From contig CP178758.1 of the NCBI GenBank assembly GCA_047651235.1, positions 2,250,001 through 2,282,000 on the forward strand: 32,000 nucleotides of DNA, in the 5' to 3' direction. Numbering within the stretch: position 1 is the stretch's first letter; the number at the start of each line of letters is the position of its first letter. This DNA is from Candidatus Electrothrix yaqonensis. GTDB taxonomy: Bacteria; Desulfobacterota; Desulfobulbia; Desulfobulbales; Desulfobulbaceae. This document shows positions 3,650 to 28,314 of the stretch, piece after piece. Position numbers and translations under genes: made by a program. The notes under the pieces were generated by a model. It did no database searches and was not told where the DNA came from. It worked only from the letters and a program-made list of their open reading frames with translations.

Positions 3650-3719
3650 ATGAGCCTTTTCTTCCCGGCGTTGCAATTACCTCCCGGAACGGGGGCGATG
3701 ACAGCCCAGAACTTGCACC

Positions 3720-5726
3720 ATGAGCAGCGACAACGAGCCTTCCTCTAACCAGCCGACAGCGAAAGCAGCCTTGGATAAGCTCAAGGAATGGCAGGAGCTG
3801 GTCGGCTATATCGCTGCCGGGCTTACTGGTGTTCTCGGCACTTTTCTGAGTGGTGGTGCACTCCAGATTGCCAGCACGGCTCTTGCTGCGGTTGCTGTAG
3901 CTGCCGGAGGCTGGCAAGTACGACGTTCGCGGCGGCAAAAAAAACAACAGGCCGAGCAGGAACGGCTCTGGGAAGAACGGCGTCAGCAGCCGAGGGCGGC
4001 CTTCCGCAGTCTCTCTCCTTTTGAGGAACAAGACGAGCTGCCCGGCCAGGATCGTAAGCAGCAGGCCCGCTCCATTGCCGTACGGATCGTCAATGACGAC
4101 TTCCGCTTCGGCATTGTCTGCGGCGATTCCGGTGCAGGGAAAACCTCGCTGCTCCGCGCGGAGGTGATGCGCTACATCCGAAAAAACGGGTTGGAGCCGG
4201 TCTATCTCCGCAATCCCCGGCGGCTGCCCGGAGCTGCACCTGCAGATGCCTCAGTCTGCGAGCGGCTGTCGATAGAACTGGATGCTTTCGAGCAGGAGTC
4301 CATTCCCGCAGATGCCTGCGTCCTTCTCCTTGACCAGTTCGAGGAATGGTTTATTGCATACCGGGAGCCGGAGGCCCGTGCCCTGCTGGGCCGCTTCATC
4401 GCCCGGCTCACGCAGCGTGTCCCGCCGGTCAAGGTGGTTTGTGCGGTGCGGCGGGAATTTCTGATGGACTTTCATGATCTCTCCCCTGAACTTCCTGACC
4501 CTACCAATCCGAACAACACCTTCAGAATTCGCAACTTCACCGTTGCTCAAGCCATAGATGCAGTGCAGGAATGCGCAACAACGGACGGCATTGCTGCAGA
4601 GGAATCCTTTGCCGCCGCGTTGACTGCTGATCTGGAGGACAACGGCGAAGTGCGCCTGCCGGAACTGCAGATTGTTTGCACCCATCTTGCTGAAAGCGGC
4701 GGTCTTAGCAGCAGCCAATATCAGGCCGAAGGCGGCACTGCTGGCATTCTCGCCCATTACATCAAAAATGCGCTGGAATCCTGCCGCGAGCCGGAGATTG
4801 GCGCAAAACTGCTCCGCTCGCTCTGCGATTTCCCCACCCGGACCAAGAGACCGTCAAAAACTTTGGCCGAGCTGGTTGCCGATATCGGTGGAACAGCTGG
4901 CAGCAGGGCAATTGCCGCGCTGGTTCGCACCTTTGTTCTGGCCCGCCTGCTGATAGAGGAAAAAAGAACGGGCAGCCCGGATACCTACGCTCTGATACAC
5001 GATTATCTGGTCGGTGCGGTGGAACTGGCTACCGGCGATGTCTCCACCAAGACAGAAGAGGCGAATCAGTTGCTGCGCTATTATCTGGCCCAGCAGAGCG
5101 GAGTTATTCCGCTGCGCAGACTGCGTTTTATCCGGGCGCATGCGGACAGGCCGTTGCTGAGGCAGCCGAATGCCCGGCGGTTATTCCGCAAGAGTCTGAT
5201 TGCGCCAGCTTTGGTTTCAGGAGCGATGGTGTTTGTGGCGGTGCTTATGGCAGGCGGGTTGTATTTGGCGGCGACTGCTCAGATTCAGTGGCGGTCTAAA
5301 ATTATTGGGCGGCATTGGGATGAGGATGAAGCCGGAGCAGTTAATTACGAAATTTTGTCTGAGAAGGGACAGGTAGTCAGCGGAACTGGTTGGTCACGGA
5401 CAAAAAAAATCAGGCTTTGGGATGCAAAAAATGGGAAGATATTTACCAGTAATGACAAACTGAAAAATTCGGCGGCAACCGTCAGCTCAAATGTTAGTTA
5501 TAGTGGCACGTTGCTTCTTTTGAAAGGACTTTCTCGTCAAGGAAAACAGCTATGCACTTTAATTAACCTTGATAATGGAGAAAAGACAGAACTGCTTGCA
5601 GGTCGTGCAAGTAGTGGCTGTGAATTCTCAGAATCAGAGCAACATATTAACTTAATTTTAGAAGATAAAAATGACGACTTATTCACTGTCGCCCTTTGGT
5701 CAGTTAACACAAGAAAAAGTTCTTAG
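3720..5726 (+). CDS. Membrane-anchored STAND-type (nSTAND/NACHT-like) P-loop NTPase: N-terminal TM hairpin, NTPase plus helical domain, third TM helix, start of a WD40-like propeller
   Basis: Hydrophobic stretch LVGYIAAGLTGVLGTFLSGGALQIASTALAAVAVAAGGW (nt ~3798-3914) is followed by RRSRRQKK. Pre-P-loop motif FRSLSPFEEQDE. Walker A GDSGAGKTS (4122-4148). Walker B VLLLDQFEEW (4320-4349). RREFLMDF and LPELQIVCTHL blocks are typical of STAND NTPases fused to WD40. TM helix LIAPALVSGAMVFVAVLMAGGLYLAATA (5196-5279). WD-like KKIRLWDAKNGK and FTVALWSV follow. Confidence 0.75.
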   Translation: MSSDNEPSSNQPTAKAALDKLKEWQELVGYIAAGLTGVLGTFLSGGALQIASTALAAVAVAAGGWQVRRSRRQKKQQAEQERLWEERRQQPRAAFRSLSPFEEQDELPGQDRKQQARSIAVRIVNDDFRFGIVCGDSGAGKTSLLRAEVMRYIRKNGLEPVYLRNPRRLPGAAPADASVCERLSIELDAFEQESIPADACVLLLDQFEEWFIAYREPEARALLGRFIARLTQRVPPVKVVCAVRREFLMDFHDLSPELPDPTNPNNTFRIRNFTVAQAIDAVQECATTDGIAAEESFAAALTADLEDNGEVRLPELQIVCTHLAESGGLSSSQYQAEGGTAGILAHYIKNALESCREPEIGAKLLRSLCDFPTRTKRPSKTLAELVADIGGTAGSRAIAALVRTFVLARLLIEEKRTGSPDTYALIHDYLVGAVELATGDVSTKTEEANQLLRYYLAQQSGVIPLRRLRFIRAHADRPLLRQPNARRLFRKSLIAPALVSGAMVFVAVLMAGGLYLAATAQIQWRSKIIGRHWDEDEAGAVNYEILSEKGQVVSGTGWSRTKKIRLWDAKNGKIFTSNDKLKNSAATVSSNVSYSGTLLLLKGLSRQGKQLCTLINLDNGEKTELLAGRASSGCEFSESEQHINLILEDKNDDLFTVALWSVNTRKSS

Positions 5727-6669
5727 AGAAATTCCTTACATTATAAATGGTTACCCTGGTTATAATTCCACTGCATTTCAATTCAGTGCTGATGGTGATA
5801 GGGTTATTGCATCTGTACGTGAAAACAACAGAGAATTACTTGCACTTTATAACGCTATTTCCGATGAAAAAATTAATTATCTTACAGATAATGATAAAGA
5901 AGGAATCAATTTCGAGTTGAACAGCCTGACGAAAATAGTTTGCACGCTATCTGAGACACAGGATGGCAATAATATGCTTCAGCTATGGAATCTTAATGAC
6001 GGCTCTCTTATAAAAGAAAGAAAGATTCCTTCAAATTATATTGAAAGAATTACCAAAGACGGCAAGTTTATTCTTCTTCACTCAAAAATAGGCAACAGCT
6101 ATATTGATATAATCACAACTTCTAACTTGGAACCAGTCCAAGACGTAGACTTTGGCACCATGCGGTTAAGCAACGCAACTTCGCAACAATCTGACCCAAC
6201 TGTTTATTGGAAAGATGGAAAAGATGTTAAACTTTGGCACGTTGGTAAAGAAGACCCGATCTTGCTGCAACATATAAAGCTCGGCGATAAAGATAAAGTA
6301 GTATCCAGTGACGACCTGCAGCGGGCTTTCATCTGGGGGCCGCATCGTCTAGTTGAGCTGTGGGATGTAAAAAAGAAAAAGCGGTTGCGCCTGCTGACTT
6401 CCCGTCAGGATAAATACATCCAGTCTGTTCAGTTTACCATGAATGACACGGCGGTGGTAATTACCGAAGAAGGTGGTGTCGCCTCGCTTTTCGACGCCAA
6501 AGACGGTAGCCCGCTGGCGCAGCATATTCCCGGTGCTTCGGTTTATTACTACGACCCCGACCTGCGGCGTATTCATCTTTGGAACAGCTTCGGGCAGGTC
6601 ATCCGTTACGTTGAAGGCCGCAGCTATTTCGGACATTTTGTCCCGACAAAGAAAGGTGCGTTGCAGTAA
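5671..6669 (+). CDS. WD40-like beta-propeller repeats; most likely the frameshifted continuation of 3720..5726 rather than an independent gene
   Basis: Degenerate WD signatures: LQLWNLNDGSL, VKLWHVGKED, VELWDVKKKKRL, IHLWNSFGQ, FSADGDRVIAS. It overlaps the upstream ORF by 56 nt in the +1 frame. No convincing SD precedes ATG 5671. Confidence 0.6.
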   Translation: MTTYSLSPFGQLTQEKVLREIPYIINGYPGYNSTAFQFSADGDRVIASVRENNRELLALYNAISDEKINYLTDNDKEGINFELNSLTKIVCTLSETQDGNNMLQLWNLNDGSLIKERKIPSNYIERITKDGKFILLHSKIGNSYIDIITTSNLEPVQDVDFGTMRLSNATSQQSDPTVYWKDGKDVKLWHVGKEDPILLQHIKLGDKDKVVSSDDLQRAFIWGPHRLVELWDVKKKKRLRLLTSRQDKYIQSVQFTMNDTAVVITEEGGVASLFDAKDGSPLAQHIPGASVYYYDPDLRRIHLWNSFGQVIRYVEGRSYFGHFVPTKKGALQ

Positions 6670-6954
6670 TCTGCCGGAATTTGATATCACACGGGGTACG
6701 AACGGGTGGATGTCTCAAGCAGAATATCGAAATGTTTCTGCGTTACGCCTGTCAAAACAAGCAGGTGGCGGTCATCACGTATTGTTATCTTTACAAGATC
6801 GCTCCGTTTTTTTCGCAGAGTTTACCCGGTTCTTAAAAAGAAACAAATCTGTTTGATCTGATTCAGGCTGCCGGGTACAATCATTTGTGTTGTCCGGATA
6901 ACTTTATGGCGGAGCAGAACAGTGGAGCTTGAATGTGTAAAATACGGGGAAAAA

Positions 6955-7092
6955 ATGGATGCGGAGCAGGCGAGATGCCGACATCCGAAGGATTACTGCC
7001 AGTACAGAAAAGCCTGCATGATCCAGTTTGTTGAGCGGGAGAACAAGGGGGCAAAGGTAGGGGAAGAAGCAGTGTCGGAAAAGAAAGACTGA
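6955..7092 (+). CDS. Possible small Cys-containing protein (45 aa), function unknown
   Basis: My own translation: MDAEQARCRHPKDYCQYRKACMIQFVERENKGAKVGEEAVSEKKD. A GGGGA motif lies 5 nt upstream of the ATG. It is below the 60-aa cut-off of the track. There is no other support. Confidence 0.25.
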   Translation: MDAEQARCRHPKDYCQYRKACMIQFVERENKGAKVGEEAVSEKKD

Positions 7093-7330: not shown

Positions 7331-7551
7331 TTACAGCACCCCGATTTTTTTCAGATGCACCTGCAGCACGGAAACCGCTGCCGGGGTTACCCCGGAAATC
7401 CGGGATGCCTGGCCGAGCGACAGCGACCTGATCCGGTTGAGTTTTTCCACCACTTCGTTGGACAGGCTGGGCAGGCCGGTATACTGCATATCCTCCGGCA
7501 GCCGGGTCTGTTCCAATTTTTTGAACCGTTCCGCCTGCTCCTGCTGGCGGC
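7331..7551 (-). pseudogene. mnmG: Remnant of the 3' end of mnmG/gidA (last ~73 codons plus stop), duplicate of 23143-23363
   Basis: Translation ...[73 protein letters not shown] compares with the intact MnmG C-terminus ...[73 protein letters not shown]. No mnmG sequence lies upstream of it. Confidence 0.9.
7331..7551. repeat. Left copy of a ~220-bp direct repeat (partner 23143-23363, constant offset 15,812 bp)
   Basis: Manual ungapped alignment of 7352-7551 with 23164-23363 gives 19 mismatches in 200 nt. Both copies are in the same orientation. Confidence 0.9.
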
Positions 7552-15680: not shown

Positions 15681-18068
15681 ATGGAAGAATCTCAGCAGAG
15701 GGACAACGGGACCGATGTCTCCTTTCCGGTAGTCGGCATCGGGGCATCGGCCGGAGGGCTGGCTGCCTTGGAAGCGTTTTTCAGCGCTATGCCGCCGGAC
15801 AGCGGTATGGCTTTTGTTGTGGTCCAGCATATCTCTCCCGATTTCAAAAGCCTGATGGATGATCTGCCGGCTCGACATACCGCTATGCCGAGCCACCGCG
15901 TGGAAAACGGAATTATCTTAAAGGCAAATGCAATCTACCTGATTCCGCCGAAATGCGTCATGACCATGGCCGAGGGCTGCCTGTATCTGCAGGAGCGCGT
16001 TACCCAGCACATAGTTCTGCCGGTGGATATTTTTTTTGAGTCCCTGGCCGCAGCAGCAGGGCCGCAGGCCGTCGGAATCATCCTCTCCGGCACCGGTTCC
16101 GACGGCTCGCGGGAAATTCAGGCAATTCATGAGGCGGGTGGACTGGTTCTGGCGCAGACCGTGGAATCGGCGCAGTTTGACGGGATGCCGAGAGCAGCGG
16201 TCTGCACGGGTATATGCGATTACGTCATCACACCGACTGAAATGCCGGGCCTGCTGCTTGACAATCTGGAACTCCTGCCTGAAGAAAAAACACACTCCTG
16301 TTATTATCATGTCCCGCTGATTCCGTCCCGGCCTTCTGCACCTCCGTCAATATCTGCGTCAGTATCCACCCCTGAACCGGCAGTTTTTCTGAATGACCGG
16401 CGGAGTGTCCAAACATTACAGCACCATATTGCGGAGCTGGAGCTGGAACTGCAGACGACCAAAGAGAATCTGCAGGCTACAGTTGAGGAACTGCAGACCA
16501 GTAATGAAGAGCTGCAGGCTACCAACGAAGAACTGCTGGCTTCCAATGAGGACCTCTATACCGTCAATGCGAAGTTTGAACGGAAAAATAATGAACTGCA
16601 GGCCCTGAACCGGGAACATCAGCATCTGCTGGACAGTCTGCTCAGCGGCGTTGTGGTGTATGACCGGAACGCAGGTATTCTGCTGAGCAATCCTGAAGCC
16701 CGCCGTATTTTAGGACTTCCGAAAGAAGAGACTCTGTGGAAATATACCGGTGACACGAACTGGCATTTTACCGACGCACAAGGAGAGAGCCTGCCGGAAG
16801 AAGCCTGCCCGGTAACCCGTATTTTAGGAAGACACGAGACAGTGTCCAATGAGCTGCTTGGGATCAGAAAATCGGACTGCCGTGATGACTTCCATGATAT
16901 CACTTGGGTGTATCTGCACGGCATACCTGTCCGGGGGGATGACGGAGAGACGGACAAGGTGATTATTAATTTTGTTGATGTCACGGATCTGCAGCAGGCA
17001 AAAGAGGCCCTGCATGAAAAGACCGCCCTGCTCAACATGTCGCAGCATATCGGCCTGCTGGGCAGCTGGGTCCTTGATGTCCCGGGTGACCGTCTGGAAT
17101 GGTCGGACGAGACCTACCGTATTTTCGGCTTGGAACCGCAGGAATTCAAGGCCAGTTATGCGGCTTTTCTGGAAAGAGTGCATCCGGAAGACCGCAGCAT
17201 GGTGAACCGGGCGTATACAGATTCCATTCAGCAGGGCGCGGACCGCTATGAAATCGAACACCGCATCATCCGTCTGCACGATAAAGCGGTACGTTTTGTC
17301 CATGAAAAATGCCGGCATCTGCGGGATGCTTCCGGCGGGATTGTCCGTTCGGTGGGCATTGTCCAGGATATTACGGAACGGAAACAGACTGCCCAGGCCC
17401 TGCGGCAGGCCAAGGAAACCGCTGAGCAGGCCAGTCATGCCAAGACCATATTTCTCGCCAATATGAGCCATGAACTGCGAACCCCGCTGAACGGCCTTCT
17501 TGGCTCTGTTCAGGTGCTCAGGCAGAAGCCGAAGTCGGATCAGGAATTCCGGGAAGGACTGGACATTATTGAACAGAGCGGAACCCGCCTGCTGATGCTC
17601 ATCAACGACCTTTTCGATTTTACGGAGCGCAATACCGGGAAGCCTCCTGAGGCGCCGGGACAGGCAGGAGAGATGGAAGAAATAGAGGAGATGGAAGATA
17701 TCAGTCTGCCGGACGGCAGATGGACAGGCAGCCCGGAAGTGCAGGTTCCGCACAGTGCTGTACTGCCATCCCCTGCCTCCTCTGAACCCATTGTTCCGCC
17801 CCCGGCTTCTGATCTGCAGGCCCTGCTGGAGGCAGCGTCCCTCGGCATGATGCATGCAATCCGCAGGCAGGCGTTTCTCCTGGAAGAACAAGATTCCCGA
17901 TACAGCCCGTTTGTCCGCCGTCTGGTGGAGCTTGCAGATACATTTGAAGAAAAGCCGCTGCTGGATTTTCTTAGAAGATATCTGGGCCCGGACAGGCAGA
18001 CAGATAAACAGAGAGCAATGAACAATGAAAGAGAATACACATGCGCCGCCACGGATTCTGATTATTGA
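15681..18068 (+). CDS. CheB-methylesterase-domain / coiled-coil / 2x PAS / HisKA(DHp) protein with no CheR domain and no HATPase_c domain; carries the same C-terminal module as the upstream kinase
   Basis: CheB-type block [20 protein letters not shown]...VVVQH...LSGTGSDG, with Ser/His/Asp positions present. Heptad stretch [29 protein letters not shown] is typical of CheB/CheR-PAS fusions. Two PAS domains. H-box [16 protein letters not shown] (His codon 17469-17471). After the DHp there is only an acidic/Pro-rich linker, then the module at 17787-17987. Confidence 0.8.
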
Positions 18069-19698
18069 TGATAACAAAATTAATCTGACGGTTCTGACAG
18101 ATTATCTGGAAGGAAGTCATATTCAGACCATGACCGCGCTCAACGGCATGAACGGCCTGGAAAAAGCCCGGCGCGGTCAGCCTGACCTGATTCTTCTTGA
18201 TGTCATGATGCCGGATATGGACGGCTTTGCAACCTGCCGCCGCCTGAAAGCTGACCCGCTGACTGCGGATATCCCGGTAATTTTTGTTACAGCCCTGCAC
18301 AGTGTAGAGGATAAGGTCACCGGATTCAATGCAGGCGGGGTGGATTATCTGACCAAACCTTTCCAGATGGAGGAGGTCCGCGCCAGGGTGTTGACCCATA
18401 TCCGGCTGAGCCGGGCAAAGAAACAGCTGCACCGGGAAATCGCCGAACGGAAACGGGCTGAAGAGGAACTCCGGCAGGCAAAAGAGGCGGCAGAATCCGC
18501 CACCCGGACGAAATCCGCCTTTCTCGCCAATATGAGCCATGAGATCCGGACGCCCATGAATGTGATCATCGGCATGAACAGACTGATCCGGGAAACCGAA
18601 CTGACCCCGCAGCAGCGGGAATATGCCGAGATGGTGTGCCATTCTTCAGAAATCCTGTTGTCGCTTATTGAAGATATTCTAGATTTTTCCAAAATCGAAG
18701 CCGGAAGACTCGATCTGGAATCTGTTGATTTTGATATCAGAGAGCTGGTCACCGGAACAGCCGGAATGCTGGAGATGAAGGCAGCCGAAAAAGGGCTTTC
18801 CCTGTCCTGCCGGATTGCGGAGAATGTTCCCTGCTTTCTCAAAGGCGACCCCACCCGCCTCCGCCAGGTGATCATGAATCTGGTCAATAATGCGGTCAAA
18901 TTTACAGAACAGGGAGAAATCAGCATTGAGGTTTTTCTGGAGCAGGAAACAGATCAGCAGGTCACGCTTGGTTTTTCGGTTGCAGATACCGGCATCGGTA
19001 TTCCTGCTGACCGGCTCAGGGATCTGTTCAAACCGTTTTCCCAGGTTGATGCATCCACAACCCGGAAATACGGAGGAACGGGGCTTGGGCTTGTGATTTC
19101 GTCCGCTATCATCGGTATGATGGACGGCAGCATCAGCGTGGAGAGCGAACCCGGAAAAGGATCGACTTTTTCCTGTACAGCCTGTTTTGACAAAGCAGAG
19201 CCGGAGCCGGAAGAAACAGCGGGTCCATCGGATTTATCGGATGAATCGGTTGCCGGGAAAAAGGAGGGAGACTGTGCTGCAGTCCTTGCCGGTCTTCGAG
19301 TTCTGCTGGCTGAAGACAACCTGTTCAATCAGAAGCTGGCTCAGATTATTCTGGAAAAATCCGAAATACGGGTGGAAACCGCTGTCAACGGCAAAGAAGC
19401 GGTTGAAGCTGTGCGCAAAGGCAGGTATGATTTTGTCCTGATGGACGTGCAGATGCCGGTCATGGACGGCCTGGAGGCCGCAAGAACACTCCGGAAAGAA
19501 CAGATCCGGATTCCCATTATTGCCCTGACGGCGAACGCAACCGCAAAAGACCGGTCCGACTGCTTAGATGCCGGAATGGATGACTATATTTCCAAGCCGG
19601 TTGATGAAGAAAAACTGCAGGATGTCATCTGCAGGCAGATGAACAGGCAGGGGGCGTGCAGAACACTCGGTCGGGAAAAAACTGTACAGATTTTTTGA
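18025..19698 (+). CDS. Hybrid two-component protein: REC, coiled coil, HisKA, HATPase_c, REC
   Basis: [12 protein letters not shown]...[14 protein letters not shown]...TKPF (REC). [14 protein letters not shown] (H-box). [27 protein letters not shown] (ATPase). [12 protein letters not shown]...[14 protein letters not shown]...SKPV (second REC). It overlaps the upstream stop by 44 nt. Confidence 0.85.
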
Positions 19699-20978: not shown

Positions 20979-21016
20979 ACTCCCGTAGCTGAATCAGCTG
21001 CGGGAGTTTTTTTATT
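20979..21016 (+). terminator. Rho-independent terminator
   Basis: 13-bp stem ACTCCCGTAGCTG / CAGCTGCGGGAGT (one G-T pair), loop AAT, then TTTTTTATT. Confidence 0.85.
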
Positions 21017-21150
21017 GTATCATAAAGAAGATCGAGCTGGACGAGTTAAAAAATATTGATATACTGCCAACCGGAATAAACTGCGCTTTTGAAAAACAGA
21101 TTACCTTCATCACCAAAACAAAAGATATATCCCTGCTCGGAGAAATACAG

Positions 21151-21185
21151 CCCTTTGGACAAGAAAAGGCGTTTTGTCCAAAGGG
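21151..21185. terminator. Perfect 12-bp inverted repeat (CCCTTTGGACAA-11 nt-TTGTCCAAAGGG), possible terminator for the convergent csp gene
   Basis: Read directly. It lies ~60 nt downstream of the csp stop on the minus strand. The U-tract is poor on either strand. Confidence 0.35.
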
Positions 21186-21247
21186 TAGAATTCCCCGCTT
21201 TTCCTTTTTTTTACGGACGAAGGGCAATCCTATACTAGGATAGGGGA

Positions 21248-21448
21248 TTACAGGGCAACAACATTATCCGCCGCCGGCCCCTTAGGCCCGTCAACGATAT
21301 CAAAACTTACCCGTTGACCTTCCTGCAGACTCTTGTACCCTTGGGATTGAATAGCTGAGTGATGAACAAAAACATCCTCACCGCCATCCTGCTCAATAAA
21401 TCCAAACCCCTTAGAATCGTTAAACCACTTTACGGTTCCTTCTGCCAT
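21248..21448 (-). CDS. cspA: Cold-shock protein (CspA family, 66 aa)
   Basis: [34 protein letters not shown] contains the RNP1/RNP2 motifs KGFGFI and VFVHH. Confidence 0.95.
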
Positions 21449-21682
21449 TTTCTCATACTCCTGTATAGCTTGATTTCTCTATGAAATCTTTATGTAAATA
21501 CGGATTACACCTTTTGAAATCCGTTGTGCAGACCAACCCATGCGGCCTGCGGGTTCTTTTCTTTATTTTGCGGAAAGCCTAGGATGACCTCAGGCTTTCC
21601 CCGGTTTCCTGGACGTTCAGTTTTGTTTTCGTCGGAGAGCAGCACCGCTATTTCTTATGAATGAAGTGAGCTCGCGGTAGGC

Positions 21683-21949
21683 TTATCGATGACGATATTT
21701 TTTTTTCTTCGTCGGTTTAGACTCGTTGCAGACAAGGTCACGGTGCTTATATCTTTTTCCGTTCAGATCTTCCATAGCCTTATGGCCTTCGCTTCTGGTC
21801 GCCATTTCCACAAAAGCAAAACCTTTTGGTCGGCCTGTAAATTGATCCTTGATGAGATTTGTGCTGACAACACTCCCGTACTGGCCGAACATGTCGGTTA
21901 ATTCATTTTCAGTAGTATTATGGGGAAGACTGCCGATAAAAAGTTTCAT
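21683..21949 (-). CDS. RRM-type (RNP-1) RNA-binding protein, 88 aa
   Basis: MKLFIGSLPHNTTENELTDMFGQYG...KGFAFVEM carries RNP2 LFIGSL and RNP1 KGFAFVEM. Start moved to the MKL codon preceded by AGGAGAAG. Confidence 0.85.
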   Translation of the reverse strand: MKLFIGSLPHNTTENELTDMFGQYGSVVSTNLIKDQFTGRPKGFAFVEMATRSEGHKAMEDLNGKRYKHRDLVCNESKPTKKKKYRHR

Positions 21950-22419
21950 ACTGCTTCTCCTGAAAAGATGTATCTCGTCTAAAACCAACAAGTAGTTAGT
22001 GTATGTAAAGAAGGTTACGAGAGAGTAAGTACGTATTGCGCGATACATACAAAAGCCATCAAAGATAGTTAAAGCAGAAACTTTAAGAGCACCAAAGGTT
22101 GGACTGGATTCACCATGACGACGGTGAAGCGGCGTAAAGAAAAGAAAATGCTAAAAAATATCAATTTATAGTTAAACAAGATAATACTCTTATTGTTATT
22201 AATTGCAATAAATAAATTCAGGAAAACAGTTTATGATCAACTTTACGAGGTAATTCCGGTACCGGTTTAGTTTTGTTTTTTTGCAGAAACAAATTGTTAG
22301 TCTTGGGCAAACTTGTTCCCGCTTTAAAGATCGGGTACACTTCACTTACAGATCCTTGCTGCATTACCGCAGCATCTCTCCTCCTTCCACCTACGAACCG
22401 GATTATCTAACTCTTCGAT

Positions 22420-22449
22420 ATCCTGCCAAATGAGAGCGGGCGGCAGGAT
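22420..22449. other. 8-bp inverted repeat ATCCTGCC-14 nt-GGCAGGAT abutting the stop codon of the minus-strand membrane-protein gene
   Basis: Read directly. The T-rich tail (tgtttattcattttt) is on the plus strand only, so the terminator assignment is ambiguous. Confidence 0.3.
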
Positions 22450-22452
22450 TGT

Positions 22453-22977
22453 TTATTCATTTTTGGCCTTGTTTTCGGGGTCACTGGAGGAGTCGCGTTT
22501 TTTGTTTGAACCGGTTGCTTTACCTGTGGTTGTTTTAATGAGAGAGGGAACAAAGCGTTCACTGAATCCGGCGATAAAGGACCAGAAAAGCAGCTTGCCC
22601 ATGCTGATACTGCTGTCCGGAAGTGTATACTGGAACCAATCGCGGATGCTCTTTTTTAAAGCTGCATGAGAATCTGGGTCGAATTTAACTTCATAGAAAT
22701 CAGGGAACAGTTCTCCTTGTACTAAACCGGAAAGAAACATCAGCATTAGCACAACAGCAAATATTCCTCCGTTAATGGATATTATTAACATAGAGGACCA
22801 TGAGTTTGATAAGAGTTTCAGTTCATCATATGTCATAGAAGGGAGACGCTGCTGGATACTGACAAAACCGCCGATCAGTCCTATCATAAATACAATGAGA
22901 ACTAAAAATCCGTCTTTTACCGATTCCTCTCCTGTCTCATAGGCTCGAGTAAAAAGGAGAATCACCAGAATCATCAC
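22453..22977 (-). CDS. AT-rich hypothetical membrane protein (about 4 TM); N-terminus unresolved
   Basis: Hydrophobic segments ILVILLF, FLVLIVFMIGLIGGFV, MLIISINGGIFAVVLMLMFLSGLV, LLFWSFIAGF. The frame stays open upstream to 23085 and encodes RRKYLQIVTKKLIIFTLIP. A strong in-frame SD-like AAGGAGGA lies at 23063-23070 (minus strand) but has no ATG/GTG/TTG nearby. Confidence 0.5.
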   Translation of the reverse strand: MMILVILLFTRAYETGEESVKDGFLVLIVFMIGLIGGFVSIQQRLPSMTYDELKLLSNSWSSMLIISINGGIFAVVLMLMFLSGLVQGELFPDFYEVKFDPDSHAALKKSIRDWFQYTLPDSSISMGKLLFWSFIAGFSERFVPSLIKTTTGKATGSNKKRDSSSDPENKAKNE

Positions 22978-23142
22978 CGGAATTAGAGTGAATATAATCA
23001 GTTTTTTGGTAACTATTTGTAGGTATTTACGCCGTTCACTATGTTGATTATTGTTCGTCTTATCCTCCTTTATTATTTCATTATTTTACTCCTTTTTAGA
23101 TTCTATCATAAAAGGATAATGAATACCAAGAGAAAATATTTT

Positions 23143-23363
23143 TCAAATTTTCCCCATCTTCTTCAGATGCACCTGCAGCACGGAAACCGCTGCGGGTGTG
23201 ACCCCGGAAATCCGGGATGCCTGGCCCAGTGACAGCGGTCTGACCCGGTTGAGTTTTTCCACCACCTCGTTAGACAGCCCGGGCAGGCCGGTATACTGCA
23301 TATCCTCCGGCAGCCGGGTCTGTTCCAATTTCCTGAAGCGCTCGACCTGCTCCTGCTGGCGTC
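23143..23363. repeat. Right copy of the ~220-bp direct repeat (partner 7331-7551); forms the functional 3' end of mnmG
   Basis: Same alignment as the left copy: 19 mismatches in 200 nt, no gaps. Confidence 0.9.
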
Positions 23364-25029
23364 TGATATACCCGGCATATTTAATCTGCAGTTCGATTTC
23401 ATCGGTACAGCGCAGTTCCTCCCCGGAAAAGGAACTTTCAGGAACAGTTTCCTCTGCCAACATAAGCAGGTCTTTCAGGCGCAATTCCGGCCTGCGCAGC
23501 AGCTCAGTCAGGGTCATGGCCTGGCTTAGTGGGGTGCTGTTGAGTTTGCTGAGCCGCTCGTTTACCGGGGGAAGAGGTTTCAGGCGAACAGCGTCCAGCC
23601 GGGTACACCCCTGCTTGATGGCGTTTCTCTTGGCAAGAAACTGCTGATAGGTTGCCTCGTCCACCAAGCCTAAACGGAAGCCGATCTCCCGTAGGCGCAG
23701 GTCCGCATTGTCTTCCCGCAGCAGCAGGCGGTATTCGGCCCTGGAGGTAAACAGGCGATAGGGTTCCTTGGTGCCCAAGGTCACCAGGTCATCGATAAGC
23801 ACCCCGATATAGGCCTGCGAACGATCCAGGATCAGCGGTTCCTGACCGCGCACCAGATGCACGGCATTGACAGCTGCCATCAGGCCCTGGGCTGCCGCCT
23901 CCTCATACCCGGAAGTGCCGTTGATCTGACCGGCATGGAACAGGCCGCTGATCCGTTTGGTTTCCAGCGAGGGTTTCAGCTCCAGCGGATCGATATAATC
24001 GTATTCAATAGCATAGCCCGGCCGGATAATGCGGGCGTTTTCCAGCCCGACAATGGAATGCACCAGCGCCACCTGGGTCTGCAGGGGCAGGCTGGTGGGA
24101 ATACCGTTGGGATAGACTTCCACGGTCTCCAGCCCTTCCGGCTCCAGAAAAATCTGATGCCGTCCCTTTTCCGGGAACCGCATGACCTTGTCCTCAATGG
24201 ACGGGCAGTAGCGGGCCCCGATACCTTTGATAATCCCGGAATACATCGGGGACTGCTCAATGCCGCCCCGGATAACTTCGTGGGTCTGCTCGTTGGTGTA
24301 GGTGATATAACAGGGGAGCTGCGGCAGGGCTGGCCTGCTGCCTTCATTGGCAAAGGAAAACAGGGCAGGCGGGTCATCGCTGTACTGCGGTTCGAGCCGG
24401 GAATAATCAATGGTTTTGCTGTCCAGCCGGGGAACCGTGCCGGTTTTCATGCGCCCGACTTTGAAACCGATCCGTCGATACCACTCGGCCAGCGCGGTGG
24501 ACGGCGCATCGCCCATTCGCCCGGCGGGAAAATTTTTCAGGCCGATATGAATAAGGCCATTGAGAAAGGTGCCGGTGGCCACCACCACGGCCCGGACCGG
24601 AACAACCTCGTCCAGCGAGGTGAGGATACCCACAACCCGGTCATCTTCGGTCAGGATTTCATCCACCACGGTCTGGCGGATCTCCAGGTTTTCCTGCTGC
24701 TCCAGCACCGTCTTCATGCGCTGCTGATAGATCCGCCGGTCGGCCTGGGCCCGGGAAGAACGGACAGCCGGGCCCTTGCTGGTATTCAGTCGGCGGAACT
24801 GGATGCCGGTGGCATCGATGTTTTTCGCCATCTCACCGCCCAGAGCATCGATTTCTTTGACCAGATGCCCTTTGGCCAGACCGCCCACTGCCGGATTGCA
24901 GGACATGGCGCCGATGGTGTCGGCATTGATAACACAGACCAAGGTGCGGCACCCCATCCGGGCGGCGGCCAGGGCTGCTTCGCAGCCAGCGTGCCCGGCG
25001 CCGATCACGGCGATGTCAAAATCTGTCAT
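23143..25029 (-). CDS. mnmG: tRNA uridine 5-carboxymethylaminomethyl modification enzyme MnmG (GidA)
   Basis: MTDFDIAVIGAGHAGCEAALAAARMGC (FAD motif), SCNPAVGG and GQINGTSGYEEAAAQG, ~628 aa. Start moved to ATG 25029. The track ORF's upstream extension has no homology. Confidence 0.95.
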   Translation of the reverse strand: MTDFDIAVIGAGHAGCEAALAAARMGCRTLVCVINADTIGAMSCNPAVGGLAKGHLVKEIDALGGEMAKNIDATGIQFRRLNTSKGPAVRSSRAQADRRIYQQRMKTVLEQQENLEIRQTVVDEILTEDDRVVGILTSLDEVVPVRAVVVATGTFLNGLIHIGLKNFPAGRMGDAPSTALAEWYRRIGFKVGRMKTGTVPRLDSKTIDYSRLEPQYSDDPPALFSFANEGSRPALPQLPCYITYTNEQTHEVIRGGIEQSPMYSGIIKGIGARYCPSIEDKVMRFPEKGRHQIFLEPEGLETVEVYPNGIPTSLPLQTQVALVHSIVGLENARIIRPGYAIEYDYIDPLELKPSLETKRISGLFHAGQINGTSGYEEAAAQGLMAAVNAVHLVRGQEPLILDRSQAYIGVLIDDLVTLGTKEPYRLFTSRAEYRLLLREDNADLRLREIGFRLGLVDEATYQQFLAKRNAIKQGCTRLDAVRLKPLPPVNERLSKLNSTPLSQAMTLTELLRRPELRLKDLLMLAEETVPESSFSGEELRCTDEIELQIKYAGYIRRQQEQVERFRKLEQTRLPEDMQYTGLPGLSNEVVEKLNRVRPLSLGQASRISGVTPAAVSVLQVHLKKMGKI

Positions 25030-25180
25030 GGTTTTTTCTGCAGATATTATGTATAAGCGAAAGTATACTTCCGTATCGGAGAATTCGGGTTCCCGCTGTT
25101 CAGCAGGCTGTTGGCAGCATACCAGTTTCCCTGTCAACCTGAAAAAAAATTCTGTCGGCCAGACATCTTTATCCGGTTTT

Positions 25181-26638
25181 ATGCACTTTCTCTCCATTGT
25201 CCATATCTTCGGCCTATTGCTGATGGCAACCGGCAGCGCCATGCTCCTGCCGCTGTTCTGTTCCCTCTATTACGGTGAAGCAGATTTTACTGCCATTCTG
25301 GTTTCTACCCTGGTGATCATCGGCGTGGGCCTGCCCTGCTGGCTCAGCACAAAGAAACAGAATGAGCTGAATATTCGTGATGGTATCATAATCGCCGTGG
25401 CAGGCTGGATTGTTGTCTCTGCCGTGTCCGGTCTGCCGTTCATGCTCCACGGCGCCATCCCTTCCTTTACCGACGCCTTTTTTGAGATGATGTCCGGCTA
25501 TACCACCACCGGCGCAACTATCCTTAATAATATTGAAGCAGTGCCGCACGGCCTGCTCCTCTGGCGGAGCGAAACCCATCTGCTGGGCGGCATGGGCTTT
25601 CTCACCCTGATTGTTCTTTTTCTGCCCAAGGGCATGGGAGGAGTGCGCCTGTTCCGGGCCGAGTCCAGTCCGGGCCAGTCCTTTACCGGGGAGAAGTTCA
25701 GCGCCAGGACCAAGGATACAATGATTCGGCTGTGGACAGTCTACCTAGGCCTTAATGTCCTGCAGATTGTCCTGCTGGCCGGGGGCGGCATGGACCTCTT
25801 TGATGCTGTCTGCACGGCCTTCGGCACCCTGTCCACTTCCGGGTACTCACCGAAAAACGCAAGCATCGGCTTTTATAATAATGCCTATTTTGACTGGGTG
25901 ATCATCGTGTTCATGTTTCTCGGCGGCACCAGCTTTGTGCTGCTCTACCACATGATGTACGGCGGTATCCGGGAAATTATCGTCAATACCGAATTTAAAT
26001 GGTACTCCATTCTGATCGTCTTTTTCTGCCTTGCCGTCTCCCTGATCCTCTGGCGGCACGGCACCTATGCAGGCATTGGGGATGCTGTCCGCTACGGCAC
26101 CTTTCAGGTCATGTCCCTGCTCACCACCACCGGCTTCGGCACGGCAGATTATGAGCAATGGCCCCAGGCCGCCCAGATGTTCCTCTATGTTTCCTGTCTG
26201 ATCGGCGGCTGTGCAGGCTCAACAGCCAGCGGCATCAAGATCGTCCATTATGTCATTGTCTGCAAGTTTATCTGGGGCAACGTGCGCAAGTCGTTTTTCC
26301 AGCCCATGTCGGTTATCTCCATCCGGCTGAATAACAGACAGGTCGATAATTCCATCATAAATATGGCGATCTGCTATTTTATCGTCAATGTTTTTATTAT
26401 CTTTATCGGCGGCTGCATTATGGTGCTACTGGACGACATGGACTATGTCACGGCCATGAGCTCCGTCATTTCCGCCCTGATGACCATCGGGCCGGGCTTC
26501 GGCGAAATCGGGCCGTCAGAAAATTTTTTCCATATCTCGGCTGCAGGCAAGTGGTTCCTGGCCTGGAACATGATGGTGGGCCGGCTGGAGCTGTTTTCCG
26601 CTCTGGTGATCTTTTATCCTTCTTTCTGGAAAAGATAA
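25181..26638 (+). CDS. trkH: TrkH/KtrB-family potassium uptake membrane subunit
   Basis: MHFLSIVHIFGLLLMATGSAML, FEMMSGYTTTGAT, GGMGFL, SLLTTTGFG, GGCAGSTASGIK, and MMVGRLELFSALVIFYPSFWK are collinear with E. coli TrkH (~485 aa). Start moved to ATG 25181. The first 135 codons of the track ORF are the antisense shadow of mnmG. Confidence 0.9.
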   Translation: MHFLSIVHIFGLLLMATGSAMLLPLFCSLYYGEADFTAILVSTLVIIGVGLPCWLSTKKQNELNIRDGIIIAVAGWIVVSAVSGLPFMLHGAIPSFTDAFFEMMSGYTTTGATILNNIEAVPHGLLLWRSETHLLGGMGFLTLIVLFLPKGMGGVRLFRAESSPGQSFTGEKFSARTKDTMIRLWTVYLGLNVLQIVLLAGGGMDLFDAVCTAFGTLSTSGYSPKNASIGFYNNAYFDWVIIVFMFLGGTSFVLLYHMMYGGIREIIVNTEFKWYSILIVFFCLAVSLILWRHGTYAGIGDAVRYGTFQVMSLLTTTGFGTADYEQWPQAAQMFLYVSCLIGGCAGSTASGIKIVHYVIVCKFIWGNVRKSFFQPMSVISIRLNNRQVDNSIINMAICYFIVNVFIIFIGGCIMVLLDDMDYVTAMSSVISALMTIGPGFGEIGPSENFFHISAAGKWFLAWNMMVGRLELFSALVIFYPSFWKR

Positions 26639-26846: not shown

Positions 26847-27431
26847 ATGGAAGATATATCAAAAACAACGAATAAAGAATTAATGACAATGGCAAGAGAA
26901 TCTTTAACAGGAGCATGGGGATTAGCCATTGGCGCCTCTATCATTTGTTATATTATATTAAATGTTCCTGGCAGGATAGACGGTTATCTGGGTCTTGTGA
27001 CGTGTATAATAGCAGGGCCCATGTCATTAGGAATGACCATTTTTTTTCTATCAATATCGAGAGAACAGAATCCTGAAATATCACAGCTGTTCGACGGATT
27101 TAAAAATTTTGGTACTTCAATCGCTGCATATTATCTAATGATTTTATTTCTTTGTTTATGGTATTTCCTTCTTATAATACCAGGAATTATAGCCTCATTA
27201 TCATACTCAATGACATGGTACATAATAGCTGACGATGATTCGATAGGTCCATTAGAAGCTATCAGGAAAAGCAAAGAAATTATGAAGGGAAATAAAATAA
27301 AATTATTTTGTTTGCAATGCAGATTTATAGGATGGCTTATACTATGCTTATTTACCCTCGGTATTGGTTTTTTATGGATATGGCCTTATGCAAATGTAAG
27401 TATTGCGAAGTTCTACGATGATATCAAATGA
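26847..27431 (+). CDS. AT-rich integral membrane protein, DUF975-like
   Basis: N-terminal NKELMTMARESLTGAWGLAIGASIICYII followed by several TM segments resembles DUF975/YciC-type proteins as I recall them. GAGGAGGAG SD lies before ATG 26847. Confidence 0.55.
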   Translation: MEDISKTTNKELMTMARESLTGAWGLAIGASIICYIILNVPGRIDGYLGLVTCIIAGPMSLGMTIFFLSISREQNPEISQLFDGFKNFGTSIAAYYLMILFLCLWYFLLIIPGIIASLSYSMTWYIIADDDSIGPLEAIRKSKEIMKGNKIKLFCLQCRFIGWLILCLFTLGIGFLWIWPYANVSIAKFYDDIK

Positions 27432-27455
27432 ACAGATGACGGTTTTAAAGAAAAT

Positions 27456-28314
27456 ATGAAAATTCAATTCGACGAGTTTTTGCCGAAGTGGAATTATGCC
27501 GCTGTTCCGTCAGGACGGCTTTGAATCCCGTAGTTATTTAATTCCCGTTCCATAATGTCGATTCCTACGGCTATAATACTGATATCGTTCATCAGGGTAT
27601 TCCCTATGAAACCGAGAGCTGGGGATGGCTGCTGGATGAACGCTGGCATGGCAAAGTGGCTCTTGTCAATGCGCCGACGATCGGGATATTTGATCTGGCC
27701 CTTGCCGTCCAGGCAAGGGGAGAAATGGAATTCCGGGATATGGGCAATATGACCCGCAAAGAGGTTGACCGGCTGTTTGAGATCGTTATAGCAAAGAAAC
27801 GGCAGGGGCATTTCCGGGGGGTCTGGACTTCAGTGCCGCATTCTGTTGAACTGATGGCTTCCGGTGAGGTTGTTCTGGAAAGTATGTTTTCTCCGGGAGT
27901 CAGTGCGCTGAACGGCATGGGAGTATTTATGCCGCACCGAAAGAGGGCTACAGGGCATGGCACGGGGTCATGTGTCTCTCCCGGTCCTGCACCGGGGAAC
28001 GTCTGGAGGCAGCCTATGCATTCATGAACTGGTGGCTTTCCGGCTGGCCCGGAGCATTCATAGCCCGGCAGGGGTACTATATTTCCAATCCGCAGCGGGC
28101 AAAAGCATTTATGTCGCAGGCTGAATGGGATTACTGGTATGCCGGGAAACCGGCTGCCGAACCGCTGCAGGGAACAGACGGTAAAATATCGGTGCACCCG
28201 GGAACTGTCCGGACCGGTGGTTCCTATATTCAGCGGTTTGAACATATTGCGGTCTGGAATACGGTTATGGATACCTATGAATATACGTTACCCAAAGTTA
28301 CCCAAATGGAGTGA
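27456..28314 (+). pseudogene. Decayed ABC-transporter periplasmic solute-binding protein (PotD/PotF-like family 1), 5'-truncated with at least 3 frameshifts
   Basis: SBP-like sequence must be stitched across frames. Frame 0 gives FDEFLPKWNYAAVPS. Frame 1 gives QDGFESRSYLIPVP. Frame 2 gives FPFHNVDSYGYNTDIVHQGIPYETESWGWLLDERWHGKVALVNAP...MFSPGVSALNGMG. Frame 1 gives IYAAPKEGYRAWHGVMCLS...EAAYAFMNWWLSGWPGAFIARQGYYISNP. There is no signal peptide or N-terminal lobe. Confidence 0.6.

Follow-up and report, generated by a model that had tools for sequence, protein, structure and literature searches.

A predicted membrane-spanning nSTAND1 protein family with a hypervariable, putatively extracytoplasmic WD40-type propeller in cable bacteria

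Introduction

To our knowledge, all prokaryotic STAND and nucleotide-binding leucine-rich repeat (NLR)-like immune receptors that have been characterised experimentally sense cytoplasmic ligands. Here we describe a gene of the cable bacterium Candidatus Electrothrix sp. YB6, at nucleotides 3720-6669 (+ strand) of the 32,000-nt stretch of contig CP178758.1 that was analysed (contig positions 2,250,001 to 2,282,000; hereafter the window, to which coordinates refer unless another locus is named). Its product is predicted to hold an nSTAND1 NTPase in the cytoplasm and a WD40-type β-propeller on the far side of the membrane. A first-pass annotation of these letters had proposed a STAND NTPase with an N-terminal transmembrane (TM) hairpin where an enzymatic effector is normally found, a further TM helix between the NTPase and a periplasmic WD40-like propeller, and no partner genes, and had called the architecture unusual.

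The nSTAND1 domain was named by Kaur, Burroughs, Iyer and Aravind (eLife 2021; PMC8195603). The passages of that paper on effector-STAND-FGS systems present them as intracellular sensors and make no mention of a TM helix between NTPase and sensor; its passages on distribution note that filamentous or multicellular bacteria hold a preponderance of nSTAND1 relatives. Kaur et al. 2020 described other kinds of conflict system located close to the membrane, and also SLATT, a pore-forming effector with two TM helices. TM-type effectors and TM-containing bNACHT classes appear in sections of published surveys, including that of Kibby et al., where a passage of the supplementary discussion suggests periplasmic sensing by some bacterial NACHT proteins with TM segments. 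A periplasmic location was also predicted for one NACHT-CLec target of a diversity-generating retroelement (DGR) by Dore et al. 2024, and a 2026 survey of 589 STAND clades frames their function as recognition inside cells.

Results

The region 3720-6669 is one gene split by a +1 frameshift. Its first open reading frame (ORF1, 3720-5726, 668 aa), which is 100% identical to the NCBI protein ACL93V_10660 of YB6, encodes an N-terminal hydrophobic hairpin, an nSTAND1 NTPase, a third hydrophobic segment (TM3) and the first ~140 aa of a propeller, and is cut short by a stop codon that the frameshift brings into frame. The second (ORF2, 5671-6669, 332 aa), in the +1 frame of the same strand and overlapping ORF1 by 56 nt, encodes the remainder of the propeller and has no signal peptide or TM segment of its own. 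The propeller region (5286-6669) is thus read in two frames because of the frameshift. Removing one A from an A5 run at 5714-5718, which leaves A4, mends the frame and gives a single protein of 982 aa, whose residue numbers are used below. The repaired junction, LWSV-NTRKVLREIPYI, aligns to uninterrupted homologues, for example, LWSI-RQNKILRQVTII. As a rule, homologues in this family are full-length, single ORFs that encode 950-1100 aa, with identities of 69% in E. communis, 67% in Electronema sp. PJ and 41% in a Pyrinomonadaceae metagenome-assembled genome (MAG).

Residues 95-431 (4002-5012) match the Pfam nSTAND1 model PF20703 with E=1e-30 and a score of 108 bits against a cut-off of 27.1, and the same model matches all 43 aligned homologues (alignment A1, to which invariance and charge counts refer). 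Both the Walker A motif GDSGAGKTS (residues 135-143, 4122-4148; P-loop consensus GxxGxGK[ST]) and the Walker B motif LLLDQFEE (residues 201-208, 4320-4346; consensus hhhhDQFEE) are intact. Residues G135, G138, G140, K141, D205, Q206, F207 and E208 are invariant in the alignment, as are R312, E315, L316 and Q317 of the motif RLPELQIVC (residues 312-320). H427 is also invariant and D428 nearly so, within an IHDYL sequence that follows a β-hairpin (residues 411-425) in the AlphaFold model. Judged by position, this pair (4998-5003) appears to be a winged-helix MHD/LHD-like motif equivalent to the LHD of Apaf-1. The helical linker that leads from the winged-helix/MHD region to TM3 (residues 432-491, 5013-5192) is the best-conserved segment of the family, with 97% identity to E. 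communis and 45-67% identity even among homologues of 30% overall identity. Helices are modelled at residues 430-480 of the linker, which is a candidate signal-transmission element.

The C-terminal ~460 aa (residues 523-982, 5286-6669) are clearly modelled as a WD40-type β-propeller. In the AlphaFold2 model built on the alignment (mean pLDDT 82), the NTPase is an α/β domain and residues 522-975 are all-β, with ~39 strands and pLDDT mostly 80-96; from strand counts alone, we estimate ~10 four-stranded blades. The best Foldseek match of the model in the PDB was full-length Apaf-1 (E=5e-22), followed by the WD40 propellers ODA16, Pwp2 and UAF1. Compared with the PDB, the family profile matched 2ymu (E=1.6e-19) and the Apaf-1 WD40 region (3e-18), and also Tako8 and WDR5, and a profile restricted to the C-terminal domain retrieves 185,486 WD40-like proteins. 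The propeller matches of ORF2 alone in Pfam are below the curated cut-offs, and for this reason the assignment rests on the profiles and the model.

Two Gly/Ala-rich hydrophobic helices near the N-terminus (residues 27-45 and 47-65, 3798-3914) form a predicted TM hairpin, and directly after the second lies the basic stretch RRSRRQKK (residues 68-75, 3921-3944), a cytoplasmic marker that is conserved in every homologue inspected. The Kyte-Doolittle (KD) hydrophobicity of the hairpin is 1.5-1.65 in YB6 and 1.8-2.8 in distant homologues, and the model places helices at residues 14-43 and 47-89 with low pLDDT (51-70). TM3 (residues 492-522, 5193-5285; KD 2.39) is preceded by RQPNARRLFRK and followed by an invariant W524, and the segment noted earlier at 5196-5279 falls inside it. 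Its hydrophobicity is retained in nearly every member (KD 2.0-2.8 over 19 residues) at a sequence identity of just 3-50%, and in the model it lies within one continuous helix of 37 residues (483-519). The three hydrophobic segments, two N-terminal and one at ~490-550, are kept by over 45 homologues, some as little as 30% identical; since the pattern recurs in essentially all full-length homologues, it is not due to chance.

Topology was assigned from KD scores and charge counts. Across the 43 sequences, the 15 residues before TM3 contain on average 4.05 Lys and Arg (net charge +3.6) and the 15 residues after it 1.93 (net +0.65), with the NTPase side being richer in 37 sequences and poorer in one. 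As an ATPase must face the cytoplasm, the propeller is predicted to be extracytoplasmic, whether or not the N-terminal region forms a hairpin. We infer a protein with a cytoplasmic N-terminus, a TM1-TM2 hairpin, a cytoplasmic nSTAND1 domain, TM3 crossing the membrane and a periplasmic propeller, and we regard the architecture and topology themselves as very likely to be correct. A pair of Cys residues, one in the last blade (DxxCRR) and the other in the C-terminal tail 3-6 residues from the end, co-occurs in 30 of the 43 members, in alignment columns occupied by L948 and G979 in the window protein. One sequence has a single Cys, and the 12 members without both are the cable-bacterial clade and truncated entries. 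Where present, the conserved pair may fit a disulfide in an oxidising compartment. A wholly cytoplasmic protein with hydrophobic segments that do not span the membrane, resembling Apaf-1 and the Avs-type STANDs, would accord with the mostly cytoplasmic WD40 repeats of well-studied proteins and with the weak hydrophobicity of the YB6 N-terminal helices, but is hardly credible given the hydrophobicity of TM3 kept through such sequence divergence, the consistent positive-inside asymmetry around it, its single long modelled helix and the C-terminal-domain Cys pair.

The first-pass annotation is therefore borne out on most counts. Each sequence feature that it listed is present where it was placed, and the STAND NTPase is documented by the PF20703 match and the invariant Walker motifs. 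The WD40-like propeller emerges alike from the profile comparison with the PDB, AlphaFold2 and Foldseek, and the order of hairpin, NTPase, TM helix and propeller is conserved family-wide. Applied to the alignment, the positive-inside rule agrees with the sides first proposed, cytoplasmic for the NTPase and extracytoplasmic for the propeller. None of the outcomes that it had named as contradicting it was observed, namely profile searches that fail to support a STAND NTPase or a β-propeller, a propeller predicted to be cytoplasmic, or homologues in conserved housekeeping contexts with a known function. New relative to that annotation are an AT-rich hypervariable cassette in the propeller and recurrent lesions among the homologues.

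The cassette spans residues ~545-830 (5352-6210). GC content drops from ~0.60 to 0.31-0.40 between nucleotides ~5350 and 6210 and recovers afterwards, and GC content at third codon positions is 0.31 in the cassette compared with 0.63 in the NTPase. The same dip is found in the E. communis and Electronema V4 genes, and there is none in one more distant homologue. Between YB6 and E. communis, amino acid identity is 87% in the NTPase, 97% in the linker and 81% in TM3, then 26% for residues 561-700 and 43% for residues 701-830, and again 73-78% in the C-terminal blades. Among Electronema strains, the NTPase is 94-99% and the last blades 90-100% identical, with the cassette at 15-50%; one Electronema pair has a common cassette allele (74-81%). 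For V4 and VV, DNA identity is 92-98%, then 37-58% over ~1 kb, then 93-99%, and the boundaries are sharp. A conserved island of LWSV codons (5694-5705) lies within the cassette, and the cassette parts flanking this island are discordant between E. communis and a related complete genome (L090), at 17% and 47% identity, which suggests mosaic exchange.

Silent or donor copies of the cassette were not found when the window and 11 further loci were searched by tblastn with the 43 C-terminal domains, which returned only the genes themselves. The YB6 cassette alone has four matches among 5.8 billion proteins, the best being from Electrothrix AUS3 (72%), and so few relatives provide no evidence of recent inter-lineage transfer. 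The cassette is confidently modelled as β-strands, which implies that its fold is constrained and its surface is not, and a recognition surface subject to diversifying or balancing selection would be expected to vary in this way. A C-terminal repeat sensor and rapid diversification, both used to recognise STAND conflict systems (Kaur et al. 2020/2021), are found together here. Diversification by a DGR was considered and rejected: the sensor is of the WD40 type, not CLec, and the variable region has no duplicate within 4-8 kb. No reverse transcriptase domain was found among the annotated neighbours; a genome-wide search for one was not made.

For five of ~16 close homologues, a single lesion was found in the gene, always inside the cassette. 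These are the +1 shift in the A5 run of YB6 (5714-5718, + strand), -1 frameshifts in Electronema VV (L088, ~6930-6950) and in a Logan assembly of a public sequencing run (L089, ~6957-6990), an AT-rich insertion of ~290 nt in the complete genome L090 (~3700-3990), and an in-frame TAA in L093 (~3900). The first four lie within ~20 codons after LWS[VI], the TAA is about 90 codons further on, and the rest of each gene is intact. Two hypotheses for the clustering are that selection acts against active alleles, and that the cassette junction at the LWSV island (12 nt) is imprecise. A receptor that is costly or toxic would be expected to show single lesions at this frequency.

The YB6 copy is probably a recently inactivated allele. 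The genome is closed and was assembled from Oxford Nanopore Technologies R10.4.1 reads polished with Racon and, using Illumina reads, with Pilon (PMC12093952). A genuine frameshift, which would make the window copy alone a recent pseudogene or an 'off' allele, is the better-founded explanation and one we think probable. Its product would be at most a truncated protein, consisting of the membrane-NTPase core and ~3 blades, and it is compatible with either of the functional readings of the family that are weighed below. Longer A runs 300 nt upstream (an A8 run at 5402-5409, and A6) are in frame, and the other large window genes examined (edd, miaB-like, ubiD, mnmG and trkH) give complete domain matches, which favours a true mutation over a polishing error. 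Furthermore, the four other homologues have independent single lesions in the same cassette, and neither the TAA in L093 nor the ~290-nt insertion in L090 can be a homopolymer error. The genome authors did, however, acknowledge polishing difficulties (PMC12093952), the lesion is located in a homopolymer in AT-rich DNA, and both halves of the gene are otherwise intact and conserved. These points, together with the single-base nature of the change, support the alternative that a residual sequencing or polishing error remains in this nanopore-based assembly and that YB6 encodes the intact 982-aa protein. We consider such an error unlikely, although a real contender, given the correctly resolved longer runs nearby and the comparable lesions in other assemblies, some of a type that homopolymer errors do not produce.

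Programmed ribosomal frameshifting after LWS[VI], or phase-variable switching of the full-length receptor, would account for the clustering of three frameshifts and an insertion, all within ~20 codons of this motif, across independent lineages, and for there being one lesion per gene with the downstream part still open. Such a functional split is nevertheless very improbable. The shifts run in opposite directions (+1 in YB6, -1 in L088 and L089) and one of the lesions, located elsewhere in the cassette, is a nonsense codon; both points argue against programmed frameshifting. The runs are short (A3-A5) and unconserved, most homologues are uninterrupted, and neither a conserved slippery site nor a stimulatory structure was seen.

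The family was found in every cable-bacterial genome that surfaced and is kept across Electrothrix and Electronema. In a set of species-representative genomes, only Electronema and a single MAG from Planctomycetota had the full architecture; the other matches in that set were nSTAND1-only, mostly from filamentous cyanobacteria, Anaerolineae, Thiothrix and actinomycetes. The hairpin-nSTAND1-TM3 core recurs with PQQ/DUF6923-like repeats, HEAT-like repeats or a short tail in place of the propeller. Ahead of the NTPase, neither the window protein nor 42 of the 43 homologues matched any Pfam domain; the remaining homologue (P0033) has an N-terminal EAD1. When the hairpin was compared in Pfam with known TM-effector families (SLATT and others), only insignificant DUF matches were obtained. 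Plasmid matches were NTPase-only, save for one Sphingosinicella protein, WP_129393323.1 (L092, 5749-7581), encoded by the mobilizable plasmid p1 of Sphingosinicella sp. BN140058. It has 610 aa arranged as TM hairpin-nSTAND1-TM, with a ~95-aa helical tail instead of the propeller, and is a minimal version of the layout.

In the wider nSTAND1 family, a strong hydrophobic helix is located precisely between NTPase and sensor in proteins that carry classical effectors. Examples (among P0057, P0058, P0061, P0062, P0069 and P0071) include Pkinase-nSTAND1-TM-WD40 (P0057), SIR2_2-nSTAND1-TM-FGE-sulfatase and SIR2_2-nSTAND1-TM-Sortilin/BNR, in addition to nSTAND1-TM-FGE and nSTAND1-TM-WD40. In a crude survey of 23 nSTAND1 ORFs from diverse genomes (L022-L085), 20 were of sufficient length, of which 15 had the helix; N-terminal segments were seen in just two. 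This sequence pattern suggests that an externally facing sensor is a common, little-discussed nSTAND1 theme, and the feature that sets the present family apart is the N-terminal hairpin replacing the effector. The architecture can therefore still be called unusual, as first proposed, for the hairpin at the effector position. It cannot be for the helix between the nucleotide-binding oligomerisation domain (NOD) and the sensor, which is common in relatives, or for periplasmic sensing, which had been suggested in the supplementary passage of Kibby et al. and by Dore et al. 2024.

No conserved partner gene was found across the loci inspected, in agreement with the absence of recognisable partners first noted for YB6. 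The YB6 gene is located between edd and rpe, the E. communis gene after ParE/Phd, and the L090 gene after HicB. The Electronema gene is flanked by gpsA and a lipocalin gene, and HigB/HTH or IS1/integrase genes are close by. Two related metagenomic loci have PrmA, RsmE and an AMP-binding gene upstream, with RelE/MqsA inserted in one of them. One distant member is next to transposases and a NACHT gene, another is next to PIN/Phd, caspase-FGE, integrase and AbiEii genes, and other distant members are found among metabolic genes. At six of the 12 loci inspected (the window counted), the gene has toxin-antitoxin (TA) modules, insertion sequences (IS) or integrases, or genes of other defence types no more than ~5 kb away; the other six, including the window, have housekeeping or metabolic neighbours or no defence-type Pfam match.

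Directly downstream of the gene in E. communis (L001, 11366-15099) and in L090 (5591-8930) are two tandem P-loop ATPases of ~610 aa, 83% identical to each other and 90% identical between the two genomes, with no Pfam match on record. They may be another defence-type gene pair. As conserved partners of the nSTAND1 gene they were rejected, there being none in the YB6 window.

Other features of the window were recorded. The ~1-kb gap between the nSTAND1 gene and rpe holds a 210-nt duplicate of the mnmG 3' end (7340-7549, - strand), 90% identical to 23152-23361, where the full-length mnmG occupies 23143-25242. The duplicate translates to the MnmG C-terminal helical bundle and looks like a rearrangement scar. 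The same gap contains a small Cys-rich ORF of 56 aa, which begins MELECVKYGEKMDAEQARCRHPKDYCQYRKACMIQF (6922-7092, + strand). Two sensor-kinase ORFs (15681-18068 and 18025-19698, + strand) overlap by 44 nt. For the first, a CheB methylesterase-PAS-HisKA protein, there was no HATPase_c match at E<=1e-5, the second combines HisKA-HATPase_c with two receiver domains, and the pair (15681-19698) may be another split or fused gene. Further low-GC stretches are found at 21000-23000 and 27000-28000 (GC 0.40-0.43 compared with 0.52 for the window). Rfam and tRNA scans of the window were empty.

Discussion

The structural interpretation of this family is well supported, and a functional interpretation, as far as sequence can carry it, is plausible. 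We tentatively read the protein as a single-polypeptide, membrane-integrated nSTAND1 conflict receptor that may act through a pore, an assignment that we would put at a little below an even chance. In such a mechanism, the propeller with its cassette would bind a fast-evolving extracytoplasmic ligand, either a phage or invader component or a non-self determinant. The signal would pass through TM3 and linker 432-491 to the adjacent MHD-like His427, so that an ADP-locked state is released; the corresponding residue of Apaf-1 and of plant NLRs keeps ADP bound while the protein is off. Nucleotide exchange would then permit ATP-dependent oligomerisation of the NTPase, and the Gly/Ala-rich hairpins and TM3 of several protomers, three helices each, might cluster into a membrane-perturbing assembly. 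The EAD1-bearing homologue might recruit a separate effector instead of forming a pore. The outcome would be growth arrest or cell death. A conflict signature is visible in relatives with the nSTAND1-TM-sensor layout, whose N-termini are SIR2_2 or protein-kinase domains and whose C-termini are of the FGE-sulfatase, WD40 or Sortilin type. The hypervariability of the cassette, the lack of a conserved partner among neighbours that include TA modules and mobile elements, and the single lesions in five of ~16 close homologues are counted in the same signature.

Several observations weigh against a conflict receptor. None of the PADLOC-DB v2 families matched, NCBIfam antiphage models gave only matches far below cut-off, and the literature contained no description or experimental test of this family that we could find. 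No phage-encoded homologue was matched. Genus-level synteny in cable bacteria and some purely housekeeping loci make the distribution less patchy than is typical of defence genes. Pore formation by the hairpin is conjecture, the YB6 N-terminal helices are only moderately hydrophobic and were modelled at low confidence, and the putative disulfide pair is missing from the cable-bacterial clade, including the YB6 gene. In addition, since the membrane separates sensor from NTPase, autoinhibition in the style of Apaf-1 or Avs is impossible.

A non-immune transmembrane signalling receptor or scaffold is a less probable account, which we estimate at perhaps half the weight of the conflict receptor. 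The propeller would monitor an envelope or cell-cell cue, the N-terminal helices would serve as anchors, and the STAND module is proposed to assemble a cytoplasmic or membrane complex; the cue might be, for example, kin or filament recognition, or the state of the shared filament periplasm. Retention across Electrothrix and Electronema with synteny at genus level, the location of some loci among housekeeping genes, and the absence of a known effector domain from 42 of 43 members and of any PADLOC match would all be consistent with this account. Hypervariable recognition domains also occur in allorecognition proteins, among them the fungal NACHT-WD40 family HET-E/D. It is opposed by the closest architectural relatives, whose SIR2 or kinase effectors and EAD adaptors are typical of conflict systems, by the frequency of TA modules and mobile elements among the neighbours, and by the disruption of one third of the close homologues, which would be unusual for a housekeeping sensor.

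Cells of cable bacteria share one continuous periplasm along the filament. A more specific form of the conflict receptor is therefore conceivable, although we rate it as rather unlikely: a one-protein immune or allorecognition receptor operating at the level of the filament, in which the propeller senses the shared periplasm and the STAND switch makes a lethal or depolarising TM pore, with alleles exchanged as AT-rich cassettes and often switched off at a lesion hotspot. The sharply bounded cassette and the recurrent lesions point to strong, fluctuating selection on recognition by the propeller.

The idea of NLR-like bacterial proteins that sense the periplasm is already known, and a TM helix after the NOD is widespread in relatives. 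What is unusual here is the combination of a three-TM topology, the lack of an enzymatic effector and a predicted external, hypervariable WD40 cassette. The hairpin-nSTAND1-TM core resembles a chassis for interchangeable, predicted external modules (WD40, PQQ-like, HEAT-like or a short tail). Such proteins make it testable whether NLR-type switches can be driven from outside, and how the signal reaches the NOD. Presence in cable bacteria ties the family to a multicellular bacterium of current interest.

Comparison with known systems

The protein resembles nSTAND1 conflict NTPases in being a clear member of the domain family with a tripartite layout, a C-terminal repeat sensor and a stand-alone gene. 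It differs from the nSTAND1 systems as these are presented in the relevant passages of PMC8195603 by having a hydrophobic hairpin at the effector/EAD position, a predicted periplasmic sensor, and an allelic cassette instead of a DGR-diversified FGS. Single-protein organisation is shared with the STAND receptors Avs1-7 and bNACHT, in which ligand-induced oligomerisation activates an N-terminal effector. Those receptors, however, sense phage proteins in the cytoplasm, no tested member has a three-TM topology or an external propeller, and the present family matches none of their PADLOC or NCBIfam models.

As in Apaf-1, its best structural match, and in fungal NACHT-WD40 proteins (HET-E/D, NWD), a WD40 propeller comes after the NOD. 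Apaf-1 and its fungal counterparts are soluble proteins of the cytosol, their propeller folds back on the NOD, and their effector is a CARD or HET domain; here, the membrane lies between NOD and propeller, and the NOD is nSTAND1 in contrast to NB-ARC or NACHT. In the fungal HNWD proteins, hypervariable WD40 repeats set recognition specificity and trigger cell death.

The proposed use of STAND oligomerisation to gather N-terminal helices that breach or gate a membrane has counterparts in the CC domain of ZAR1 and the HeLo domain of HET-S. No sequence similarity to either was detected, and their helices are soluble until activation, whereas those described here are predicted to be constitutively inserted. 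With SLATT and CBASS Cap14/15-like TM effectors, the family shares a pair of TM helices at the expected effector position; unlike those and other TM-effector families, the hairpin has no Pfam match, and its activity is putative. An external β-propeller joined by one TM helix to a signalling module in the cytoplasm is also the arrangement of Mycobacterium PknD and of the Pkinase-nSTAND1-TM-WD40 protein P0057, with the difference that the predicted output here is a STAND switch combined with a TM hairpin, and not a kinase.

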